Source: a virus. Taken from it: 17,932 nt of DNA. Where the stretch lies: UHGV virus genome UHGV-1599718. One strand, written 5' to 3'. The stretch's first letter is position 1. Every line of letters begins with the position of its first letter. Below, in pieces: positions 969-14,358 of the stretch. The notes below the pieces were generated by a model. That model saw only the letters and a program-made list of their open reading frames with translations, searched no databases and was not told the DNA's origin. The position numbers and the translations under genes are program-made.

Positions 969-988
969 CGGCGGGAGACGTCCCGCCG
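969..988 (-). terminator. stem-loop, candidate terminator after the 355-aa gene
   Basis: Perfect inverted repeat cggcggga-gacg-tcccgccg 12 nt downstream of the stop at 1000; followed on the minus strand by an AT/U-rich stretch. Confidence 0.4.
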
Positions 989-999
989 TAGGCTTACTG

Positions 1000-2067
1000 T
1001 CAGGCTTTCAATAGCGATTCTTTTAGATATCGGGCATCAGCCAGGGCGTTTGGAGTAATCTTGCGAACCCATGCATTACGGGTTGGACTCCACTTAAAGG
1101 CGCGTGATTTAAGCAGCGAACGAATGTTTGCCTCTGGTTTGCCAGGGAAATAAAACAGGATGCGGTTATCCTCTGGATCTATCTCCATAGAAAAGCCGTC
1201 GTATTCTTCGCGCTGTGCTCCTGTTACAGACTTGACCGATTCAAGCTCCTTAATACGGCTCTGTAGTCGTTTGATTTCGGCGTTATTGTTGCTCAGTGCG
1301 TATGAAGGGAATCCGATGCGCCCACAGAAATCTCCGGCCAGTAACTCTTTGGCTTCGCTTTCTGTAAACCTGAGATCGATTAATGCAGAAAGCTGCTGTA
1401 ATTGGTCTTTTTTGTATTTGCGAATGGCCTTATTTGCGGCCTTCATTTTGACGTGTGACTTCATGCAGCCTTGCAGCTTACGAAGCAACTTAAATAGCGC
1501 ATCAGGATCATCAGACGAAATTCCATTACGACCAACACCTGCGGCTTTGCTCTCGTAGTGTGATGCTTTACTTTCGCATTCAACAAACGCTTTTCTGAAT
1601 AACGCATCAGCTTTAGACAAACGGCGGCGATGGCCTTTCGCGCTATAATGGTCAACTAAAATCGGCTGGCCTAACGGGATCACATCCAACAGGTCATGCG
1701 CTCGCTTATGCGCTACCGCACCTTCTTTTCTGGCTTTTTCTGCACGAGCAATATATCGGGCAAGACGCGCGTTCTGGCGTTCCTGATAGGTGTTTACGTA
1801 ATCATCTCCGCGCTGCTGCTGTTCAAGCCATGCTTTGCGCAGATCTTCTGTTACGTCCACCAGCTCCGCAGGGATACAACCAGTTTGGGCTTCATAAGAG
1901 TAACCATCCTCATAGATACGCCCATCGTCTTCAACAAAGAAAAAGGTTTCGTGCTCATCGCTTTTGACCATACGACCATTAACATGGCGTAATAGGTAGC
2001 CAGTATCAGTGCTTAACAGGCTGTTAGGGTTGTTGATCCAGTCAGAAATAATTACTTGTTTATTCAT
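1000..2067 (-). CDS. hypothetical protein (355 aa), unknown function
   Basis: Long uninterrupted ORF starting ATG at 2067..2065; preceded by the conserved 89-bp leader. No family confidently recognised (DUF3560-like is a weak recollection only). Confidence 0.75.
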   Translation of the reverse strand: MNKQVIISDWINNPNSLLSTDTGYLLRHVNGRMVKSDEHETFFFVEDDGRIYEDGYSYEAQTGCIPAELVDVTEDLRKAWLEQQQRGDDYVNTYQERQNARLARYIARAEKARKEGAVAHKRAHDLLDVIPLGQPILVDHYSAKGHRRRLSKADALFRKAFVECESKASHYESKAAGVGRNGISSDDPDALFKLLRKLQGCMKSHVKMKAANKAIRKYKKDQLQQLSALIDLRFTESEAKELLAGDFCGRIGFPSYALSNNNAEIKRLQSRIKELESVKSVTGAQREEYDGFSMEIDPEDNRILFYFPGKPEANIRSLLKSRAFKWSPTRNAWVRKITPNALADARYLKESLLKA

Positions 2068-2073
2068 CAGATT

Positions 2074-2162
2074 TCTCCGGTTTAACCAGGGCGGGTATCG
2101 CTCGGTTTCGGTTATAACCTTAGGAAATTTTTTCCCACCTGTAAAGCACTTTTTATATAAAT
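2074..2162 (-). promoter_or_regulatory. conserved 89-bp promoter/5-prime leader element, copy A
   Basis: 89 bp differing at 2 positions from 10975..11063, in both cases immediately upstream of a minus-strand start codon; contains the palindrome GGTTATAACC. Confidence 0.55.
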
Positions 2163-2188
2163 CTATAATTATATATTTATAGATTTTC
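2152..2188. promoter_or_regulatory. AT-rich operator-like repeat, copy b (10-bp inverted repeat AAATCTATAA / TTATAGATTT)
   Basis: ttttatataaatctataattatatatttatagatttt; inverted halves aaatctataa and ttatagattt separated by 7 bp. Confidence 0.4.
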
Positions 2189-2236
2189 GATGTTCCCGAT
2201 GTCTACACACCATCAAAACAGCTCAAAATGACACTT

Positions 2237-2614
2237 TCACTCTCTTCGCTTTTTCAAATAGTCGACAACATACGCCCTGGCTTTTGCCAGCTTCCGGCGA
2301 TACTGTCTGAGACTAAGAGAAAGGGCGTGGGCTTTATCAATATGCGGTGCATTTATGTCGAGGCCCCGAATCTCCCACGCCCCGTATTCAATTCGGACAA
2401 CCAGCGCCGCAGTCTCATCAACTACCGTGAGGGCCGTCACCGCTCCCTCGATACTGGTTTCCAGTGAGTCATTTGGTGCGCCGCCCCCTCCGGTAAACTG
2501 GCAACGCGTAACCATCATCATTTCTAACATCGACGCGAAACCGCTACGGGCGTTGCAGCCATTGCGCACCCACAGCGCCCATAGCTCAAACAAGCTATCC
2601 AGATCGCGTCTCAC
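2237..2614 (-). CDS. phage antitermination protein Q-like (125 aa)
   Basis: N-terminal LFELWALWVRNG resembles the ERWGAWAANN motif of small Q-family antiterminators (QuuD-like), recalled from memory. GTG start at 2614..2612, 3 nt after the upstream stop. Confidence 0.55.
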   Translation of the reverse strand: MRRDLDSLFELWALWVRNGCNARSGFASMLEMMMVTRCQFTGGGGAPNDSLETSIEGAVTALTVVDETAALVVRIEYGAWEIRGLDINAPHIDKAHALSLSLRQYRRKLAKARAYVVDYLKKRRE

Positions 2615-3584: not shown

Positions 3585-4096
3585 TGATGGCCCCCGTCAT
3601 TTCTAGTGCTTTTCACCGTGCGGCTTCTTAAAAACCTGCCATCACGAACAACAGACACTTCTCGTTTACCCAACCTCATTTCACGGCGGTAACATTCAGA
3701 AAATGCCTCGTCCGGCATCATATAAATGCGACGCTTCGCCTCCGTATCCAGAAGGGAACGGCTTGGGGTTACATATAAGAACGACTCATCAATAGGGACA
3801 AAACCACGAGCAAGAATTGCTGGCAGAATGCCAGGAAGAACGCAGAAAACAGCTCCACGATGCAGCAACATCTGGTACTCCATGACCTCCGTTATCCCCG
3901 TGACGACTGTTACGGTGTCACGTCTGTTACGGCTGGCAACCAGTCGCTGCACACGTCCAATTTTCTGATCTACAGATAGATGTTTGCTATCGTTATCAAT
4001 ATGATCGATAACAAATCCTTTAATCGTTTGATCAAGGTAGTGCACCACCTGCGATTGAATCTGGTGATTATCACCAAAGAAGGCCAGAATCATCAT
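3581..4096 (-). CDS. hypothetical phage protein (171 aa)
   Basis: ORF with ATG at 4096 overlapping the stop of the Cro-like gene; no family recognised. Confidence 0.55.
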   Translation of the reverse strand: MMILAFFGDNHQIQSQVVHYLDQTIKGFVIDHIDNDSKHLSVDQKIGRVQRLVASRNRRDTVTVVTGITEVMEYQMLLHRGAVFCVLPGILPAILARGFVPIDESFLYVTPSRSLLDTEAKRRIYMMPDEAFSECYRREMRLGKREVSVVRDGRFLRSRTVKSTRNDGGHQ

Positions 4097-4587: not shown

Positions 4588-4606
4588 TTAACGAACTCCA
4601 GTTAAA

Positions 4607-4642
4607 ACCACGATATGTGGTATTAAAACCACATATCGTGAG
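4607..4642. promoter_or_regulatory. tandem operators O1 (ACCACGATATGTGGT, 4607-4621) and O2 (ACCACATATCGTGAG, 4628-4642)
   Basis: Two 15-bp ACCAC-N5-GTGGT dyads with centres 21 bp apart, between divergent CI-like and Cro-like genes. On the minus strand they fall in the spacer and -10 region of a TTGAAA-N17-TTTAAT promoter candidate. Confidence 0.6.
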
Positions 4643-4709
4643 TTTTTCAATGGGCGAAACAAAAAATAACCTTCTATTTGTGGTCCACCTCTCGTCTTAC
4701 CATGTGAAA

Positions 4710-4724
4710 ACCACTAAATGTGGT
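4710..4724. promoter_or_regulatory. operator O3 (ACCACTAAATGTGGT) upstream of the CI-like gene
   Basis: Same dyad architecture, 38 bp upstream of the start at 4762; adjacent TATAAA at 4729-4735. Confidence 0.55.
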
Positions 4725-4761
4725 AATGTATAAATAACCCACCATTCACGATTGATGAGAC

Positions 4762-5418
4762 ATGAAAAGCAACGACGAGAACATCAAGAAAGAAATAGGT
4801 CTGCGCATTCAGACTCTACGGAAACAATCCGGCATGACTGCCGGAGATCTCCAGCAAGTCACTGGAATAGGCTTAAGCACCTTGCAGAACTATGAGGCCG
4901 GATTAAGACAACCATCTATACCTGCCATCAAGAAAATCGCGCACGCCCTGAAAGCATCAGCGCCTTATATCGCGTGCTTAACAGATAACCCGTTCCCACC
5001 CCAGAATACTAACGCTCCTGTTATTCCTGGGCTTGTAGCTATAAAAAATGACATAGCATCGCACGCCGGAGAAAAACCAGTGCTGGCGATAGAACAGGAG
5101 ATTCTACGAAGCAAGAACATCAACCCATCGTCTCTGTCAGTTCTCCAGAGCAACGATGAGTTAATGTCACCAACAATATCCCCTGGCTCCCAAGTCCTGA
5201 TTAATACAGACGATACAGAGATTCATGAGGGGATCTATGCCCTTGAAGACAGAAATGGCCTGGTTGTTTTGAGGCACTGTAGAGTCATACCGGGTGACAA
5301 TGCTGTTATGCTGTCAACCGAAAGGGATGCTGAAATGAACACTAAGCATCTGAATAACGAGGAATTTAAGCGTTATAAAGTTCTTGGCCGCGTAGTTAGT
5401 GTTGTCAACTGGTTATGA
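4762..5418 (+). CDS. CI-like prophage repressor (HTH_XRE N-terminal domain plus S24 LexA-like peptidase C-terminal domain, 218 aa)
   Basis: HTH segment IGLRIQTLRKQSGMTAGDLQQVTGIGLSTLQNYEAG. C-terminal region ELMSPTISPGSQVLINTDD ... GDNAVMLS ... KVLGRVVSV matches the Ser/Lys autopeptidase layout of LexA/CI proteins. Confidence 0.8.
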   Translation: MKSNDENIKKEIGLRIQTLRKQSGMTAGDLQQVTGIGLSTLQNYEAGLRQPSIPAIKKIAHALKASAPYIACLTDNPFPPQNTNAPVIPGLVAIKNDIASHAGEKPVLAIEQEILRSKNINPSSLSVLQSNDELMSPTISPGSQVLINTDDTEIHEGIYALEDRNGLVVLRHCRVIPGDNAVMLSTERDAEMNTKHLNNEEFKRYKVLGRVVSVVNWL

Positions 5419-5890: not shown

Positions 5891-5908
5891 AGCGGGCTAA
5901 CGCCCGCT
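5891..5908 (+). terminator. stem-loop, candidate terminator after the 5511 gene
   Basis: agcgggc-taac-gcccgct directly after the stop at 5885, followed by an AT-rich run (ttatatgattat). Confidence 0.5.
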
Positions 5909-6013
5909 TATATGATTATAGATTTATATAATTATATAAAACGCTTTTCATCCGCCAAAAAGTTGGTTATGCTTATCTCATTCTATAAATATAGATTTAT
6001 AGAATTATATAAT
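5908..6013. promoter_or_regulatory. two AT-rich repeat clusters (copies c at 5908-5939 and d at 5982-6013) upstream of the ParA gene; candidate operator or centromere-like site
   Basis: ttatatgattatagatttatataattatataa and tctataaatatagatttatagaattatataat; TCTATA-AA-TATAGA is a perfect palindrome. Confidence 0.4.
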
Positions 6014-6035
6014 CAAACACATGGAGTCTCGACAA

Positions 6036-6689
6036 ATGACTATATCTGTAGGTATTTTCAACGGAAAAGGCGGCGTAACCAAATCAACCATTGCTCGTGC
6101 TTTAGCAGTTGCTTATGCAAAGGCTGGCTGGAATGTATGCCTGATCGATATGGATGTGCTTAACGGAACGGTAACGCGTTGGGTACAACGCAGAATGGCC
6201 AACAATATCGAACCTGCAATCGCGGCGCAGCCGTGCGGCACGCCATCACAAGTCCAGAAAATCATCGAATCAGAAGTATACGACCTGGTTATCGTTGATG
6301 GCGGTGCCTACGCATCTGAATCAGTACCGAAGCTATCTGAATTTCTGGATATGGTTATTTTGCCAACCAGATTCTCTACCGATGACCTGGAAACCACCGT
6401 TAACACTGCTCACGGTATCGTTAAAAAGGGTGTACCAATCAAGAAAATTTGCATGGTGTTTTCCGGCGCGGCTGAAAACGAAGCTGACTATATTGAAGCC
6501 CAAGAGTACCTGGCTAATACGCCATACTTTGTTGTTGATAAGTACATTCCCCACAAGCCAGCTCTGAGCAAAGCTCAGGATAAGGGCTTAAGCCTCATTG
6601 AGTGCTCATACGTTGCGCCACGCAAAAAGGCAGACGACGTTATTCAGGGGATTATCAACCAGCTTGAGGCTCTGACTACTGCCGCGTAA
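6036..6689 (+). CDS. parA: ParA/ParF-type partition ATPase (deviant Walker A)
   Basis: GKGGVTKST deviant Walker A at the N-terminus and DLVIVDGG Walker B-like motif. ATG 6036 has GGAG 9 nt upstream; the track start at 6021 lacks an RBS. Confidence 0.85.
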   Translation: MTISVGIFNGKGGVTKSTIARALAVAYAKAGWNVCLIDMDVLNGTVTRWVQRRMANNIEPAIAAQPCGTPSQVQKIIESEVYDLVIVDGGAYASESVPKLSEFLDMVILPTRFSTDDLETTVNTAHGIVKKGVPIKKICMVFSGAAENEADYIEAQEYLANTPYFVVDKYIPHKPALSKAQDKGLSLIECSYVAPRKKADDVIQGIINQLEALTTAA

Positions 6690-6720
6690 TATATAATTAT
6701 AGTTTTATAGATTTATATAA
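6688..6720. promoter_or_regulatory. AT-rich repeat copy e between the ParA gene and its partner
   Basis: aatatataattatagttttatagatttatataa starting at the ParA stop codon. Confidence 0.4.
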
Positions 6721-6732
6721 GAGGGGATACAC

Positions 6733-6981
6733 ATGGCCGCACCATCAAAACCACCAAAGAAGAACAGCAAAGGCGTACCGCCATCGATCGAACAACCGCA
6801 GGTTTTCGACCCGACTGAAACGCCAACCAGAACCAAATCAGGTGGGGCACAAATGGCGTTTAACGTCGACCCTGAATTTAAACGCGAGTACAAAACGTTC
6901 GCCAGCTCAATGGATATGTCATTGAAAGAAGTGCTGACAAAATCTTTTGAGTTACTCAAGTCTCAATACAACCAGAAGTAA
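6733..6981 (+). CDS. ribbon-helix-helix DNA-binding protein, ParG/Omega-like partition or regulatory partner (82 aa)
   Basis: Strong RBS AGAGGGG. Disordered basic N-terminus followed by an RHH-like C-terminus (AFNVDPEFKREYKTFASSMDMSLKEVLTKSFELL), immediately downstream of the ParA gene. Confidence 0.55.
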   Translation: MAAPSKPPKKNSKGVPPSIEQPQVFDPTETPTRTKSGGAQMAFNVDPEFKREYKTFASSMDMSLKEVLTKSFELLKSQYNQK

Positions 6982-7043
6982 GAGAAGGTGACGGCCTCCA
7001 GCGCCAACTGTTGGCCGTCGCGACACAACAAGGGGAATTTGTT

Positions 7044-7193
7044 ATGTCCGAGCAACAATATACACGGTTACTGAAAACTCGTCTAACCGACCTCAAACGG
7101 CTGCAAGCTGGTCGCTTATTTGCCCTGCTATCCACCAGGCCAGAATGGGTACGTGAAGCTGTTCTGAAAGGTTTAATGCGCTCCAGCGTTTAA
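7044..7193 (+). CDS. small hypothetical protein (49 aa)
   Basis: ATG at 7044 with AAGGGG about 8 nt upstream (the track start at 7011 is TTG); followed by a terminator hairpin. Confidence 0.35.
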   Translation: MSEQQYTRLLKTRLTDLKRLQAGRLFALLSTRPEWVREAVLKGLMRSSV

Positions 7194-7209
7194 ATTCAAC
7201 CATAAAAAA

Positions 7210-7225
7210 GGCCCCCGAAGGGGCC
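7210..7225. terminator. bidirectional intrinsic terminator
   Basis: ggcccc-cgaa-ggggcc flanked by an A-run on the left; on the minus strand the stem is followed by ttttttatgg. Confidence 0.5.
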
Positions 7226-7231
7226 TAATCG

Positions 7232-7354
7232 CTACTTGCTGCTAATGTTTATCGTCACATTCAGAGCGTTATCAGTAATCTTCCAACCCTCCCCATGTGG
7301 CGTAAACAAAGCTCCAGTAACAACGATAAAAATACACATACAGTATTTTTTCAT
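7232..7354 (-). CDS. possible small hydrophobic peptide (40 aa); speculative
   Basis: Internal ATG of ORF 7232..7414 gives MKKYCMCIFIVVTGALFTPHGEGWKITDNALNVTINISSK; ends at the minus-strand face of the 7210-7225 terminator. Weak RBS. Confidence 0.2.
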   Translation of the reverse strand: MKKYCMCIFIVVTGALFTPHGEGWKITDNALNVTINISSK

Positions 7355-7752
7355 TGTATGGCCCTTACAGGCCGTTTCACGGCATCCCCACCGACGAAAA
7401 CAACGCGAGAGCAAGCACGGCTGCTTGTGCTTGCATGTACGGCAACGGAGAATCCTCCCCTAAAGTCGGTGCCCGGGTGCGAATCGGCGGGAAGGTCCAC
7501 AGGTATTTTACGATTATTTTAAGATTAGTAATAGGAAAGAAATTAAACGAAAAAACTCGTTTATTTTCACAAAATCAGTAACCTACCCACAATCTGTGAG
7601 TTTGCAGGCACAACAAGAACCACAATTTTTTGAAGCATAATAGTGGACTATTATTACCTTTTGGGTAAAATTAACTTGCTGCTTGTGCTTGCGTGGTTGT
7701 TTATACAACAACGTAATGCTGAAAGGACCGCGAATCCGATCAGCACGAAAGA

Positions 7753-7779
7753 ACCGTCCTCAATAGGGCGGTTTTTTTG
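7753..7779 (+). terminator. intrinsic terminator candidate in a non-coding region
   Basis: accgtcct-caat-agggcggt (one G-U pair) followed by TTTTTTT. Confidence 0.5.
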
Positions 7780-7925
7780 TTTCTGCCTACCAATAAACCC
7801 ACGCTATGTGGTTGTCTCTGTTAAAATCCCGCCGTATTGACATGAATGCGCCATTGGTGGACACTTTCCGAGCCGTAGCAAAATCTACGGTCGGGATTGG
7901 AACCCCGATAATCATCATGGCGCAT

Positions 7926-7946
7926 ACCGCGTTAGCGGTTTTTTTA
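7926..7946 (+). terminator. intrinsic terminator candidate in a non-coding region
   Basis: accgc-gtta-gcggt followed by TTTTTTT. Confidence 0.5.
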
Positions 7947-8110
7947 TGCGTAAAGCACTGCTACACCCAAATTATGGTGGGGCGTGCGGGGGAGTCGTAA
8001 GACTCGCCGGATTCCATGGTGACCGGTAGTTCCAACCCTGTACGTCTCACCACCCAATGATTGGAACCAGACGGTGGTGAGTATCCTTAACCTTTAAGGG
8101 AACTATCACC

Positions 8111-8302
8111 ATGACAAACTTACCCCATGACTATTACGTCAACCTCGTAAAGATCCTTCTCAAGAAAGCCTCATACGCCGATAAATTACGCTTGGCTGAA
8201 ATCATCGAGCGCGAAGCTATGCGCATCGCCAGCAACGATAACGCTGTTTCTGACGCAAAAATCTCCCTCGTAACCAAAGTAGTTATGGGAGGTGCAAAAT
8301 GA
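8111..8302 (+). CDS. small hypothetical phage protein (63 aa)
   Basis: ORF whose TGA overlaps the ATG of the downstream Rha-like gene (ATGA); weak RBS. Confidence 0.45.
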   Translation: MTNLPHDYYVNLVKILLKKASYADKLRLAEIIEREAMRIASNDNAVSDAKISLVTKVVMGGAK

Positions 8303-9441
8303 AAACGCTTCCGACCGTTAACACCCTACAGCCTATCCTGCATAACCAGATCCCCGTTATCACTAGTGAACTTCTGGCGCAGTTATACGGAACAAAAATC
8401 AAAAACATTTCTGATAACTTTCTGAACAACTCGACGCGATTCGTAGCCGGAAAGCATTACTTTAAAATTGAAAAAAACGAATTACGCGAGTTCAAGAACA
8501 GACCCGAAACAATCGGGTTAGTTGGTAAAAATGCCCGCTCCCTAATTCTCTGGACCGAACGCGGGGCTGCACGTCACGCTAAAATGCTCGAAACCGATCA
8601 GGCGTGGGATGTATTCGAACGGCTGGAAGACTGCTATTTCAACCAGAACGCGCAAACGGCCGCGACCGTAACCGTCTCGCCAAACAATGCTCGTGAGGTT
8701 GTCGATACGCTCAACGCCAAACCGATGTTTTACATTAAGGTGTGCAATAACGAGCCACTCACAACCTCAGCCGATGTTGCCCAGGCATTCAGCACCACAA
8801 ACAATTCCATCGTTATGGCCATCGATGCGTTACGCATTCCTCGCACAGCTGCGGCACGTCATTTCTTTAAAGAGCAACGACCGCTGGAAGGAAGCGACCG
8901 CGAAATAACAATCTATCGCATGACAAAAGATGGATTTACCTTGCTCATGGAAAGTATCGACGGTCCAGGCGTGAAAGATATCAAGCTGGCCTACATTGAA
9001 GCCTTTAACGCTATCAGCAGCGTGTTAAAAACACAGTACGAGCGTGATCTGGCTAAACGACTGTACCAGGAAAAAACGATTATCCGCGCGGCAACAGAGC
9101 ATAATCGGCTATTAACGGAACCGAACTACAGGAAGGAACTAATCAAGGAGTTTGACAAGGCAACAGGGAAAACCAAAGCGGCGCTAAATCTGCCAGCAAT
9201 GACTCAGGAAAATGTGATATCAGCCTTACTTCTTGATCTGCTCAGAAACGCCAGAGCACTTATCAGCTTTGACGAAAACCTGAATCCTCAGCTCAAGCTA
9301 CTACCACCGACAGGCAAAGTAGTCGACCAGGCTGATCACAACAGCATACTCAGCGTTCTGGATGCAAACCTGCCAGCCAGGACACTACAGGATCTGATAA
9401 AAACATGTGCTGATAAGCTGGCACAGAAAAGCAGACCATAA
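8299..9441 (+). CDS. phage regulatory protein Rha family, antirepressor-like, with N-terminal ORF6N/KilA-N-like domain (380 aa)
   Basis: GGAGG RBS. N-terminal region (IPVITSELLAQLYGTKIKNISDNF ... SLILWTERGAARHAKM) resembles the ORF6N domain. Central region (PLTTSADVAQAFSTTNNSIVMAIDAL ... ITIYRMTKDGFTLLMESIDGPGVKDIKLAYIEAFNAI) resembles the Rha domain. Confidence 0.75.
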   Translation: MKTLPTVNTLQPILHNQIPVITSELLAQLYGTKIKNISDNFLNNSTRFVAGKHYFKIEKNELREFKNRPETIGLVGKNARSLILWTERGAARHAKMLETDQAWDVFERLEDCYFNQNAQTAATVTVSPNNAREVVDTLNAKPMFYIKVCNNEPLTTSADVAQAFSTTNNSIVMAIDALRIPRTAAARHFFKEQRPLEGSDREITIYRMTKDGFTLLMESIDGPGVKDIKLAYIEAFNAISSVLKTQYERDLAKRLYQEKTIIRAATEHNRLLTEPNYRKELIKEFDKATGKTKAALNLPAMTQENVISALLLDLLRNARALISFDENLNPQLKLLPPTGKVVDQADHNSILSVLDANLPARTLQDLIKTCADKLAQKSRP

Positions 9442-9637: not shown

Positions 9638-10180
9638 AATAATTCCACCATAACCGATAACCACCCTTCAGACACAACCCCCCCTCCCCCCATACAGGGT
9701 GCCCTTTACCGGAGTTCCGGCCCCTTCTCAAAAGCATCAAAAAAAGCTCGAGATCGAGTACCGGAACTCATGCCACCAGATAGCTCCACATCGTTTCCAA
9801 TGCTTCGCCGCCGTGTGCGCCCTGTGGCCCACAATCATGCCATTGGTCGTCTGATATACCTTCTTCTGCTCATAGAGCACAGGCGAGTTGTCGCACTCCT
9901 GCCTTTCTCAGACTCGACTTAGTTTAGATCGCTGTTCCTGGCTTGCGTCAGCACACTTTCCCCTTGTACGCATACCCGCGCGCCACTCCGCCCAAAAACA
10001 CCGAACCCAACGAAGTGGCAAAGACAACGACGCGAGCGTGAGTCTGAAATGGGCACCAGTAAAAAAGGGGTTGCAGGCGCAAAAAGATTTGATTATCTTT
10101 AGACGCAAGAAAGCCGCCCCAATCAAGAGGTGTCTTTTTAAATCCAGCCTACCAAGCAAGATTTAAATTTCAGACTGAAA

Positions 10181-10250: not shown

Positions 10251-10523
10251 TCATTTGTTCCCTTGTTCCAATTCTGCCGACACTTTAACCTTTTCCCATA
10301 CAAGGGTTTGCAGCCTTAACAGAATCGCGTCTTTATCAAGGTGTGAAAGATCCTTCACCATATCGTCAAACGACAGAACGCGAATGGCCATCTCAATGAC
10401 CCTCGGCGGCTCCCCCTTCTCATATCGCTTATATGTAGCCAACGATATCCCAAATTCTTCGGCGGCTCGCTCCTGCGTCCAGTTCACCCCACGACGCCAT
10501 AATTTCAATTCATAACCCGTCAT
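10251..10523 (-). CDS. small HTH (XRE/Cro-like) DNA-binding protein (90 aa)
   Basis: ATG at 10523 preceded by GAGGAGGA at 5-nt spacing (the track start at 10556 is TTG). HTH-like segment WTQERAAEEFGISLATYKRYEKG. Confidence 0.6.
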   Translation of the reverse strand: MTGYELKLWRRGVNWTQERAAEEFGISLATYKRYEKGEPPRVIEMAIRVLSFDDMVKDLSHLDKDAILLRLQTLVWEKVKVSAELEQGNK

Positions 10524-10552
10524 AGCATCCTCCTCGCACAATATTAACACTC

Positions 10553-10577
10553 GCAAAGTGTCAAAATGACACTTTGC
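10553..10577. promoter_or_regulatory. perfect 11-bp inverted repeat GCAAAGTGTCA-AAA-TGACACTTTGC
   Basis: Sits between the 126-aa gene stop (10587) and the HTH gene start (10523); a 15-nt half-copy (tcaaaatgacacttt) recurs at 2223-2237 at the 3-prime end of the Q-like gene. Confidence 0.45.
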
Positions 10578-10586
10578 GCATTGTGT

Positions 10587-10967
10587 TTACTTAACGAGGA
10601 ATAAAAATGGTTTATTGTTCGGCGGTGTAATCGCGGCTGGCTCGCTTTTGCTCATGCGATCAGTGTACCAGGCCAGCTCCTTGTCAAAGTAAGCCTGATT
10701 AAAATAGGCAATGAATGTAGTTTCAAATCCATAACGGCCGCTAATACGCAGCATCTGATTGCCGTTCTCTGTTTCCAGATATACCTGGGCACGTTCCTGA
10801 TTCTCCTTCAGCCAGGTTAAAGCCTCATCGCATGAGGACACACGATACTCATCATCGTAGCAGTCATCGATGCGGCTTGAGGAAGAACGGCAAATCACGC
10901 CAACAGAACCAGCCAGGATAGTTTGAATTTTAAGGAAAGCGTTTTTGCGGATTTTAATCATGCTCAT
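10587..10967 (-). CDS. hypothetical protein (126 aa), unknown function
   Basis: ORF with ATG at 10967 immediately downstream of the second copy of the conserved leader. Confidence 0.65.
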   Translation of the reverse strand: MSMIKIRKNAFLKIQTILAGSVGVICRSSSSRIDDCYDDEYRVSSCDEALTWLKENQERAQVYLETENGNQMLRISGRYGFETTFIAYFNQAYFDKELAWYTDRMSKSEPAAITPPNNKPFLFLVK

Positions 10968-10974
10968 CGGGTTA

Positions 10975-11063
10975 TCTCCGGTTTAACCAGGGCGGGTATC
11001 GCTCGGTTTCGGGTATAACCTTAGGAAATTTCTTCCCACCTGTAAAGCACTTTTTATATAAAT
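10975..11063 (-). promoter_or_regulatory. conserved 89-bp promoter/5-prime leader element, copy B
   Basis: Differs from 2074..2162 at 2 positions, and the similarity continues about 13 bp into the adjacent AT-rich repeat; the flanking coding sequences are unrelated. Confidence 0.55.
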
Positions 11064-11086
11064 ATATAATTATATAATTCTATGAG
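11052..11086. promoter_or_regulatory. AT-rich operator-like repeat, copy f
   Basis: ttttatataaatatataattatataattctatgag. Confidence 0.4.
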
Positions 11087-11130: not shown

Positions 11131-11430
11131 TCAGATGTTAAACGCTATTCGTTTTCCTGTGGGAAGCTCAACATCCAGGCTTAATTTGCCTCCCATAGCT
11201 TCAACGTAACGCTTTAATGTCGCCAGCTTTAAATCATTTCCGCGCTGCTCCAGCTTTGTTACTGCTGGCTGGCTTATACCCATCGCCTCAGCAACCTGTT
11301 TTTGTGATAACTGGAGTTCTTCACGCATCATCTGCAAGCCGACCTCAAGAATCATCTCATCTGCCATTTCTTTAATTCGCGCCTGGCTTTCCGGTGAACG
11401 GCTGGCAATCGCCTCATCTAATGTTCTCAT
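11131..11430 (-). CDS. HTH (XRE-type) antitoxin, HigA-like addiction-module antidote protein (99 aa)
   Basis: HTH segment LQLSQKQVAEAMGISQPAVTKLEQRGNDLKLATLKRYVEAMGGKL; start overlaps the toxin stop (TAATG). Confidence 0.7.
   Translation of the reverse strand: MRTLDEAIASRSPESQARIKEMADEMILEVGLQMMREELQLSQKQVAEAMGISQPAVTKLEQRGNDLKLATLKRYVEAMGGKLSLDVELPTGKRIAFNI

Positions 11431-12388: not shown

Positions 12389-14358
<1,970 letters not shown>

Follow-up and report, generated by a model that had tools for sequence, protein, structure and literature searches.

The DUF3560 family (PF12083, named YdbA in UniProt) is typically found in the leading regions of conjugative plasmids, the parts that enter a cell first, and is also a module of polyvalent proteins. 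In pMccB17 the family gene, ydbA, lies upstream of a methyltransferase gene and ssb, and in the leading region of pO157 it stands between antirestriction/DUF1380 genes and ssb. The leading-region survey of Samuel et al. (Nature 2024) ranks it as family 28 of its top 100, with 1,913 members at a median position of 12 from the origin of transfer (oriT), on the leading-transcript strand and under the label “Uncharacterized; DUF3560”. Here we describe a solo member of this family encoded in UHGV-1599718, a viral stretch of 17,932 nucleotides (nt), hereafter called the window, which is the plasmid/early, non-structural part of a ~48-kb myovirus phage-plasmid of Escherichia coli and relatives. We propose, with a probability of roughly one half, that this is an establishment or anti-defence cargo gene lodged in a self-contained promoter-to-terminator cassette of the phage-plasmid.

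Some relatives fuse DUF3560 to ArdC-N, some, in proteins of 1,142–1,685 amino acids (aa), to ArdC-N and a zincin metallopeptidase (MPTase) domain with or without DUF2958, and others join it to a ddrB-ParB domain, to a DNA polymerase III beta-like domain, or to LPD30 and LPD29. Such fusions are polyvalent proteins in the sense of Iyer et al. (2017; PMC5512222), a paper that does not name DUF3560 and that argues for a role of polyvalent proteins and their solo domains in early invasion. The neighbours of Pseudomonas relatives of the window gene encode SSB, an orphan cytosine methylase, KorA, an LPD30-LPD29 protein, a SprT-like protein, the type IV coupling protein and a TrwC relaxase; those of Dickeya relatives encode ParA, KorB, KorA and SSB, with an LPD29 gene adjoining DUF3560; and those of metagenomic plasmid relatives encode ParA, ParB, KorA-like, KleA-like and RadC proteins. 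Together with the fusions and the leading-region survey, this context points to establishment or anti-defence cargo, in line with the cargo-type role first supposed for the gene, and not to replication or morphogenesis.

A second point of comparison is offered by regulons in the hands of partition or maintenance proteins, among them those of omega of pSM19035 with its arrays of 7-bp heptads, ParG of TP228 with boxes at an 8-bp period, KorB of RK2, StbA of R388, and ArdK with the CUP repeats of the IncN plasmid pKM101; the dispersed SopB centromeres of phage-plasmid N15 belong to the same class. The locus described here resembles them in having short tandem repeats at several promoters, including that of the par operon, and repeated promoter modules ahead of establishment genes. 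It differs in that its repeat unit, TTATATAA, and its module sequence are lineage-specific, and in that binding of a protein to the arrays is a prediction.

The third comparison is with the lambdoid Q/PR'/tR' cassette of the Q21 type (bioRxiv 10.1101/651190). Gene, promoter, terminator and late genes follow one another here as they do there, and the fold of the 125-aa protein encoded upstream of the promoter resembles Q21 and AlpA; unlike in the lambdoid cassette, however, a coding gene of 1.07 kb separates promoter from terminator, no pause element could be made out, and the upstream protein belongs to no Q sequence family.

Results

A DUF3560 protein encoded by a phage-plasmid

Between positions 900 and 2300 the window is 99.5–99.9% identical to ~57 circular “plasmids” of 47–50 kb from E. 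coli, Escherichia and Klebsiella, which are typed as non-mobilizable, and three Yersinia myoviruses of 49 kb (vB_YpM_39, 41 and 44) match this part just as closely. The complete 48-kb record NZ_CP020518 (locus L002) encodes a full head, contractile-tail and lysis gene set and, besides, a HigB/HigA pair, a small ParA and a RepA of the IncFII type, from which we take the window to be the non-structural portion of a phage-plasmid and not of an integrated lambdoid prophage. Assignment to the pSLy3 phage-plasmid group was rejected, since that group falls within the ~100-kb SSU5 supergroup, to which the present element does not belong.

The gene of interest is a genuine 355-aa open reading frame (ORF) at 1000–2067 on the minus strand, beginning with ATG and preceded at a distance of 7 nt by a GGAG Shine-Dalgarno sequence. 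Because it reads from right to left, the stretch 2068–2236 lies upstream in its own sense. The product had initially been given no recognised family; Pfam places residues 94–216 in DUF3560 with E 3.8e-31 (108.2 bits against a cut-off of 27.2, profile positions 2–124 of 124), RefSeq already annotates the gene accordingly, and phrog_6744 matches the protein over its full length. Homologues range from 43 to 99% identity. A word-index search returned 724 relatives, mostly proteins of ~265 aa covering residues ~91–355, which makes the conserved unit roughly double the size of the Pfam domain, and a profile search of 1.84 billion representatives gave 8,914 clusters at E ≤ 1e-3.

In a diverse alignment of 37 sequences 30 columns are invariant, all 30 of which are kept in the window protein and sited in loops and helix ends, and the conserved motifs (IPxGQPILxxHxS...R, GISSDDP, MKxxNxxIR, DFCGRxGF...NNN, ENRxxFxFxGKP...R..LK and FKWSPxRxAWVR) reach past the Pfam domain to the C-terminus. 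The AlphaFold 2 model (pLDDT 89.9, pTM 0.79) predicts an N-terminal beta domain at residues ~5–65, with five strands within ~17–53, a helical DUF3560 core at 93–280 built from long helical hairpins (93–128, 143–177, 190–217 and 255–280), and a C-terminal domain at 285–355 of beta-beta-beta-alpha-beta-beta-alpha order. The N-terminal ~90 residues are common only to close relatives and a Dickeya/Yersiniaceae group; the idea that they form a diverged ArdC-N was dropped after hhalign comparison with the ArdC-N part of fused relatives (probability 0.5%).

The gene is, in short, a new member of a large named family, already listed publicly as DUF3560, with a lineage-specific N-terminal domain. It has the Pfam domain and the motifs to the C-terminus in common with YdbA of F-like and other conjugative plasmids, and both are found among establishment-type genes; unlike those copies, it resides in a non-conjugative phage-plasmid, has its own ~90-aa N-terminal beta domain and is altered at residues 139 and 141. 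The protein is not ArdC, with no Pfam match to either ArdC-N or the zincin metallopeptidase domain. Nor is it polyvalent: relatives of 781–1,685 aa qualify as such, in which DUF3560 is a module alongside ArdC-N, MPTase, ddrB-ParB or LPD29/30, whereas the 355-aa window protein has one recognised domain and none of these partners.

A replication or priming function has some apparent backing in database labels. The C-terminal half (residues 173–351) matches phrog_19458, annotated as primase, at E 2e-37, as well as proteins labelled primase in Faecalibacterium and Clostridium phages, and one relative is fused to the DNA polymerase III beta-like domain mentioned above. We nevertheless hold such a function to be very improbable. 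Domain searches do not back the “primase” label carried by phrog_19458 and two phage proteins, the phage proteins containing no primase, Toprim or AEP domain in Pfam and one of them having a weak DUF3560 tail only; the window protein has no Toprim/DnaG, AEP or similar catalytic domain in Pfam and no primase fold or sequence match in the PDB; and the element already encodes an IncFII-type RepA.

A promoter and leader module used three times

The initial annotation had noted an 89-bp element ahead of the gene with ~98% identity to a second site, and this holds: 2074–2162 and 10975–11063 are identical at 87/89 positions (97.8%). The similarity reaches 108 nt at 95% (2074–2181 against 10975–11082) and ends sharply at both ORF starts. 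A 35-nt core of the leader occurs exactly three times in the complete 48-kb genome and in none of 100 shuffles, which excludes chance for the repeated leader.

Read in the direction of the gene, copy A begins with an array of four 8-bp palindromic TTATATAA-like units (2153–2184) directly upstream of the −35 region, with AAAAAGTGC standing between the array (2184–2153) and the −35. The candidate −35 hexamer, TTTACA (2140–2145, minus strand), is invariant in all copies and lies 17 bp from a candidate −10, TAAGGT (2117–2122, minus strand; TATGGT in other copies), assigned by inspection and conservation. Within the 17-bp spacer an inverted repeat, TGGGAAA-AAA-TTTCCTA (2121–2137, minus strand), is apparent in the sequence and in the aligned copies; it is perfect in a Klebsiella relative (TAGGAAA-ATA-TTTCCTA) and is a candidate second operator or activator site. 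A conserved 5' untranslated leader of ~43 nt (2068–2110, minus strand), counted from an inferred transcription start, contains the GGAG (2075–2078, minus strand).

The alignment on which these assignments rest comprises five copies of the module: three come from genes of E. coli elements, and the other two from a Klebsiella aerogenes relative with a DUF3560 protein of 70% identity. The promoter elements are kept in 5/5 copies, as is the GGAG, and the leader is nearly invariant. Copies inside one genome carry identical variants, indicating concerted evolution or co-evolution with a trans factor. Among 21 stretches found by an IMG/VR scan, the module always precedes DUF3560, a 126-aa gene, or a variable third gene of 73–97 aa (73, 76, 89 or 97 aa among relatives). 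Its constant attachment to the same three gene positions makes it a lineage-specific promoter and not the roaming, general cassette leader that had been envisaged at first.

Copy B, with array, promoter, leader and Shine-Dalgarno sequence (10975–11085, minus strand), precedes the 126-aa gene (10587–10967, minus strand), which matches phrog_8090 only and returned zero matches in Pfam, NCBIfam and PADLOC. The third copy lies outside the window, at 46574–46657 of NZ_CP020518, ahead of an 89-aa gene, the first of the structural operon. Right after the DUF3560 stop codon stands a GC-rich hairpin followed by an A/U-rich tail (970–987, minus strand; −19.4 kcal/mol, z −3.2), a candidate terminator that would close a single-gene unit; a terminator scan gave no call there, because the U run is weak. 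The 126-aa gene is likewise followed by a hairpin, with a 12-bp stem (~10548–10578; −21 kcal/mol, z −5.1). With strong hairpins right behind them, both genes appear to form one-gene units.

A perfect palindrome, AAGTGTCA-AAA-TGACACTT (10556–10574), lies within the hairpin behind the 126-aa gene and directly adjoins a 101-aa helix-turn-helix gene (10251–10556) at its start. An identical 15-nt half, TCAAAATGACACTTT, recurs at 2223–2237, where it overlaps the stop codon of the 125-aa gene upstream of copy A.

Several other roles for the module were considered and set aside. The leader RNA has no significant fold (z −0.88) and the changes between lineages are not compensatory, which speaks against a structured RNA; pairing of the leader with the nearby C4 or isrK RNAs gave duplex energies no better than those of shuffles; and control by a cI-type repressor was rejected since ACCAC-N6-GTGGT operators occur only at 4600–4730, with none in the DUF3560 module.

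In unrelated conjugative elements of Dickeya and Pseudomonas, too, promoter/leader modules recur before DUF3560, LPD29/30, methylase and small genes, and each of them closes with a GC hairpin and GGAG. These modules lie at 9950–9992 and 11189–11231 of locus L005, and at 239–354, 4029–4082, 4718–4827, 7022–7143, 7646–7768 and 9054–9176 of locus L006; L005 in addition contains a dispersed TTTTGTGCATGCACAAAA palindrome at no fewer than seven sites. Common descent with the modules of a Pseudomonas conjugative plasmid was suggested by a MAFFT alignment and was rejected when nhmmer gave zero matches, the window module showing no similarity to the modules of the Dickeya and Pseudomonas elements in that search. 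No KorB-type operators were found near DUF3560 genes.

The upstream gene and late transcription

Upstream of copy A lies the gene for the 125-aa protein (2237–2614, minus strand). It had been called Q, and the layout is compatible with this: in the complete genome nin-like Ref and DUF1064 genes, the 125-aa gene, the promoter, the hairpin at 970–987 with its weak U tract, and then holins, lysozyme and structural genes follow one another on the same strand. The name itself is interpretation. The protein has no Pfam, NCBIfam or PDB match beyond a weak full-length one to NCBIfam PA0613_fam (21 bits, E 2.5e-4), and only close relatives were found among 5.8 billion proteins. PA0613 lies immediately ahead of the holin gene in the Pseudomonas R/F-pyocin cluster, likewise a Q-like position. 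Q21 itself resembles the structure of sigmaE region 4 (Yin et al., bioRxiv 10.1101/651190), and with this resemblance and the fitting gene layout a Q21-like role for the 125-aa protein is plausible; it is possibly a Q21-like antiterminator or a DNA-binding regulator akin to sigma region 4.

This opens the main alternative to our proposal, in which the module would act as a late promoter of the PR' type that includes a Q-loading site, the 125-aa protein would be an antiterminator of the Q21 type and DUF3560 would be the first late gene. The protein would then be made mainly in lytic growth, and might be packaged and injected like P1 Dar and phage polyvalent proteins. Besides the gene order from Ref/DUF1064 to the lysis and structural genes, which matches the lambdoid cassette, a conserved initial transcribed region common to three different genes is how a Q-utilisation site would be expected to look, and the third module copy heads the structural operon. 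The inverted repeat of the spacer, centred near −22, is reminiscent of P1 late promoters. Q21 moreover recognises direct repeats of 8-bp subsites (bioRxiv 10.1101/651190); the 8-bp arrays of the module, however, lie too far upstream for a Q21-type binding element and are also present at parA, where Q makes no sense. The 125-aa protein stands outside the Q sequence families, with an hhalign probability of 1.2% against QuuD, and in the Klebsiella relative an extra 146-aa gene separates the 125-aa gene from the module. Copy B, before the 126-aa gene, has no late genes after it. Finally, a persuasive −10-like pause element is missing from the E. coli leader (GATACC, against GATAGT in the Klebsiella relative), and Q loading at the module promoter is accordingly hypothetical. 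Weighing both sides, we regard a late-gene role as possible, though rather unlikely.

Palindromic arrays shared with the partition locus

Arrays of four to five palindromic TTATATAA-like 8-bp units occur six times in the window, at 936–967, 2153–2184, 5908–5939, 5973–6020, 6689–6720 and 11054–11085, and eight times in the complete genome, where the two further ones lie at 46650–46681 and 47778–47817 of NZ_CP020518; there were none in 200 shuffles. All are intergenic and the 28 kb of structural genes contain none. They precede DUF3560, the 126-aa gene, the third module gene, a 100-aa winged-helix/MarR-like gene (641–943), and a unit of tRNA-Met and an MT-A70 methylase, the array ahead of the 100-aa gene (936–967) standing between that gene and the terminator hairpin of DUF3560. 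Two more flank the parA promoter (5908–6020), and another (6689–6720) is placed directly before an 82-aa gene downstream of parA.

The par locus itself may correspond to a type Ib partition system (ParF-ParG, delta-omega), with a small ParA followed by a small partner gene and arrays at 5908–5939, 5973–6020 and 6689–6720. ParA (6036–6689, plus strand; 217 aa by the RefSeq start) matches CbiA, ParA and MipZ in Pfam, is ParF-sized and has a weak match to ParF 4dzz (E 3e-4). The 82-aa protein (6733–6981, plus strand) has a basic, low-complexity and probably disordered N-terminal half and a ParG-like C-terminal QMAFNVDPEFKREYKTFASSMDMSLKEVL pattern; it has no Pfam or PDB match. By analogy with ParG, omega, KorB, StbA and SopB of N15 we infer that the arrays may serve the partition system as centromere/operator sites and at the same time control other promoters, with the 82-aa protein as the best candidate for a protein that would bind them.

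The same features can be accommodated if DUF3560 is a lysogenic-conversion moron, expressed constitutively from the plasmid-prophage and serving the resident element or the host, for example through exclusion of other mobile elements or in DNA metabolism, and having no role at entry; the AT-rich arrays would then merely be UP-like or nucleoid-protein sites. Single-gene units with their own promoter and terminator are typical of morons, the arrays sit upstream of the −35 as UP elements do, and accessory genes, a toxin-antitoxin pair among them, lie close by. We find this quite improbable, since no defence-system model matches, the distribution of the family is tied to transfer or entry regions and polyvalent proteins and not to defence islands, and the strict architecture of 4 × 8 bp, met eight times including at parA, argues for a specific binding protein.

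Other features of the element

The element has two layers of immunity, a cI-like repressor and a C4/antirepressor module. The cI-like gene occupies 4762–5418, and three ACCAC-N6-GTGGT-type palindromes between it and a divergent early operon (4600–4735) are presumably its operators. The second layer is a P1-type immI module (7872–8057 and 8111–9441) with isrK (Rfam score 70 bits), C4 antisense RNA (84 bits), a 63-aa ORF and a 380-aa ORF6N + Rha antirepressor in this order. Between the par locus and immI, in an otherwise non-coding stretch, lies a full-length ryfA RNA (7204–7500, minus strand; 142 bits against a gathering score of 80). The window also carries a Hin invertase and an IS21-family insertion (12389–14358) with an IstA-like transposase and IstB ATPase, which is missing at the corresponding place in NZ_CP020518.

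Outside the window, NZ_CP020518 encodes three proteins with ParB/Srx N-terminal domains just upstream of the terminase genes (40811–44691) and, after tRNA-Met, the MT-A70 methylase. Plasmid leading regions, too, typically contain genes of the ParB/Srx and MT-A70 kinds, which are likewise typical of P1 Dar-type packaged proteins.

Discussion

We favour the view that the DUF3560 protein helps the phage-plasmid to establish itself in a new cell. It would do so by acting on incoming DNA or on a host factor that attacks this DNA, by means of its basic, Trp-rich C-terminal domain and the conserved polar loops in the helical core. Its gene would be transcribed from the sigma-70-type promoter of the module (TTTACA, 17 bp, TAAGGT), which would be free in a naive cell and then turned down by a small partition-type DNA-binding protein on the TTATATAA arrays. 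The 82-aa ParG-like protein would be the best candidate for this repressor and the 100-aa winged-helix protein an alternative. The predicted outcome is a transient burst of expression at entry, as in the omega, KorB, StbA and ArdK plasmid regulons. The hairpin would end the unit in the plasmid state, and in lytic growth the Q21-like protein may allow read-through to the lysis and late genes.

A number of observations weigh against this proposal. Some concern the route of entry: the complete record NZ_CP020518 contains no relaxase or type IV secretion system genes and no oriT, and the DUF3560 gene, carried by a non-mobilizable phage-plasmid, is not one of the first genes after oriT on an entering strand. 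The element injects double-stranded DNA, and for these reasons the logic of single-strand entry in leading regions is not directly transferable to it. Others concern the protein. A search of the accessible literature on DUF3560, PF12083, YdbA and PA0613 found no functional study, and DUF3560 is without an experimentally assigned activity or solved structure; fold searches with the model of the 355-aa protein returned coiled-coil noise only; and the window protein has aspartate at the near-invariant G139 and tyrosine at the consensus H141 of the 37 aligned sequences. PADLOC gave zero defence-model matches for the gene or its neighbours, on which grounds membership in a defence system was rejected.

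The remaining points against it touch on regulation. A consensus promoter scan called no promoter at the module, because the −10 hexamer matches at only 3/6 positions, and the assignment was made by eye and rests on conservation. The want of a clear pause element in the leader bears on the read-through step as well as on the late-gene alternative. In the hhalign comparison residues 40–72 of the 82-aa protein align with the ribbon-helix-helix region 36–68 of ParG (query 100% identical to annotated ParG genes) at E 0.05 and a probability of 1%, values that lend its ribbon-helix-helix character no statistical support, and arrays upstream of the −35 could equally be UP-like elements or activator sites.

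A wider hypothesis, which as a whole we regard as unlikely, would join these elements into an entry regulon. DUF3560 would be a new establishment or anti-defence effector, and the eight centromere-like TTATATAA arrays, bound by the small partition protein, would time a burst of establishment genes comprising DUF3560, the MT-A70 methylase, the ParB/Srx-like genes and the 126-aa gene, from promoters that might also be loading sites for the Q21-like antiterminator in lytic growth.

DUF3560/YdbA is among the 100 largest families of plasmid leading regions, yet it is without a known activity. A phage-plasmid of 48 kb that forms plaques on laboratory hosts and carries a solo version in an uncluttered promoter-to-terminator cassette is therefore a convenient system in which to establish the function of the family. 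As judged from the sequence, the regulatory wiring appears to be a more unusual part of the locus than the gene itself, and the thrice-used module and the eight arrays shared with the par locus suggest that plasmid maintenance, entry functions and late transcription may be coupled in this element.

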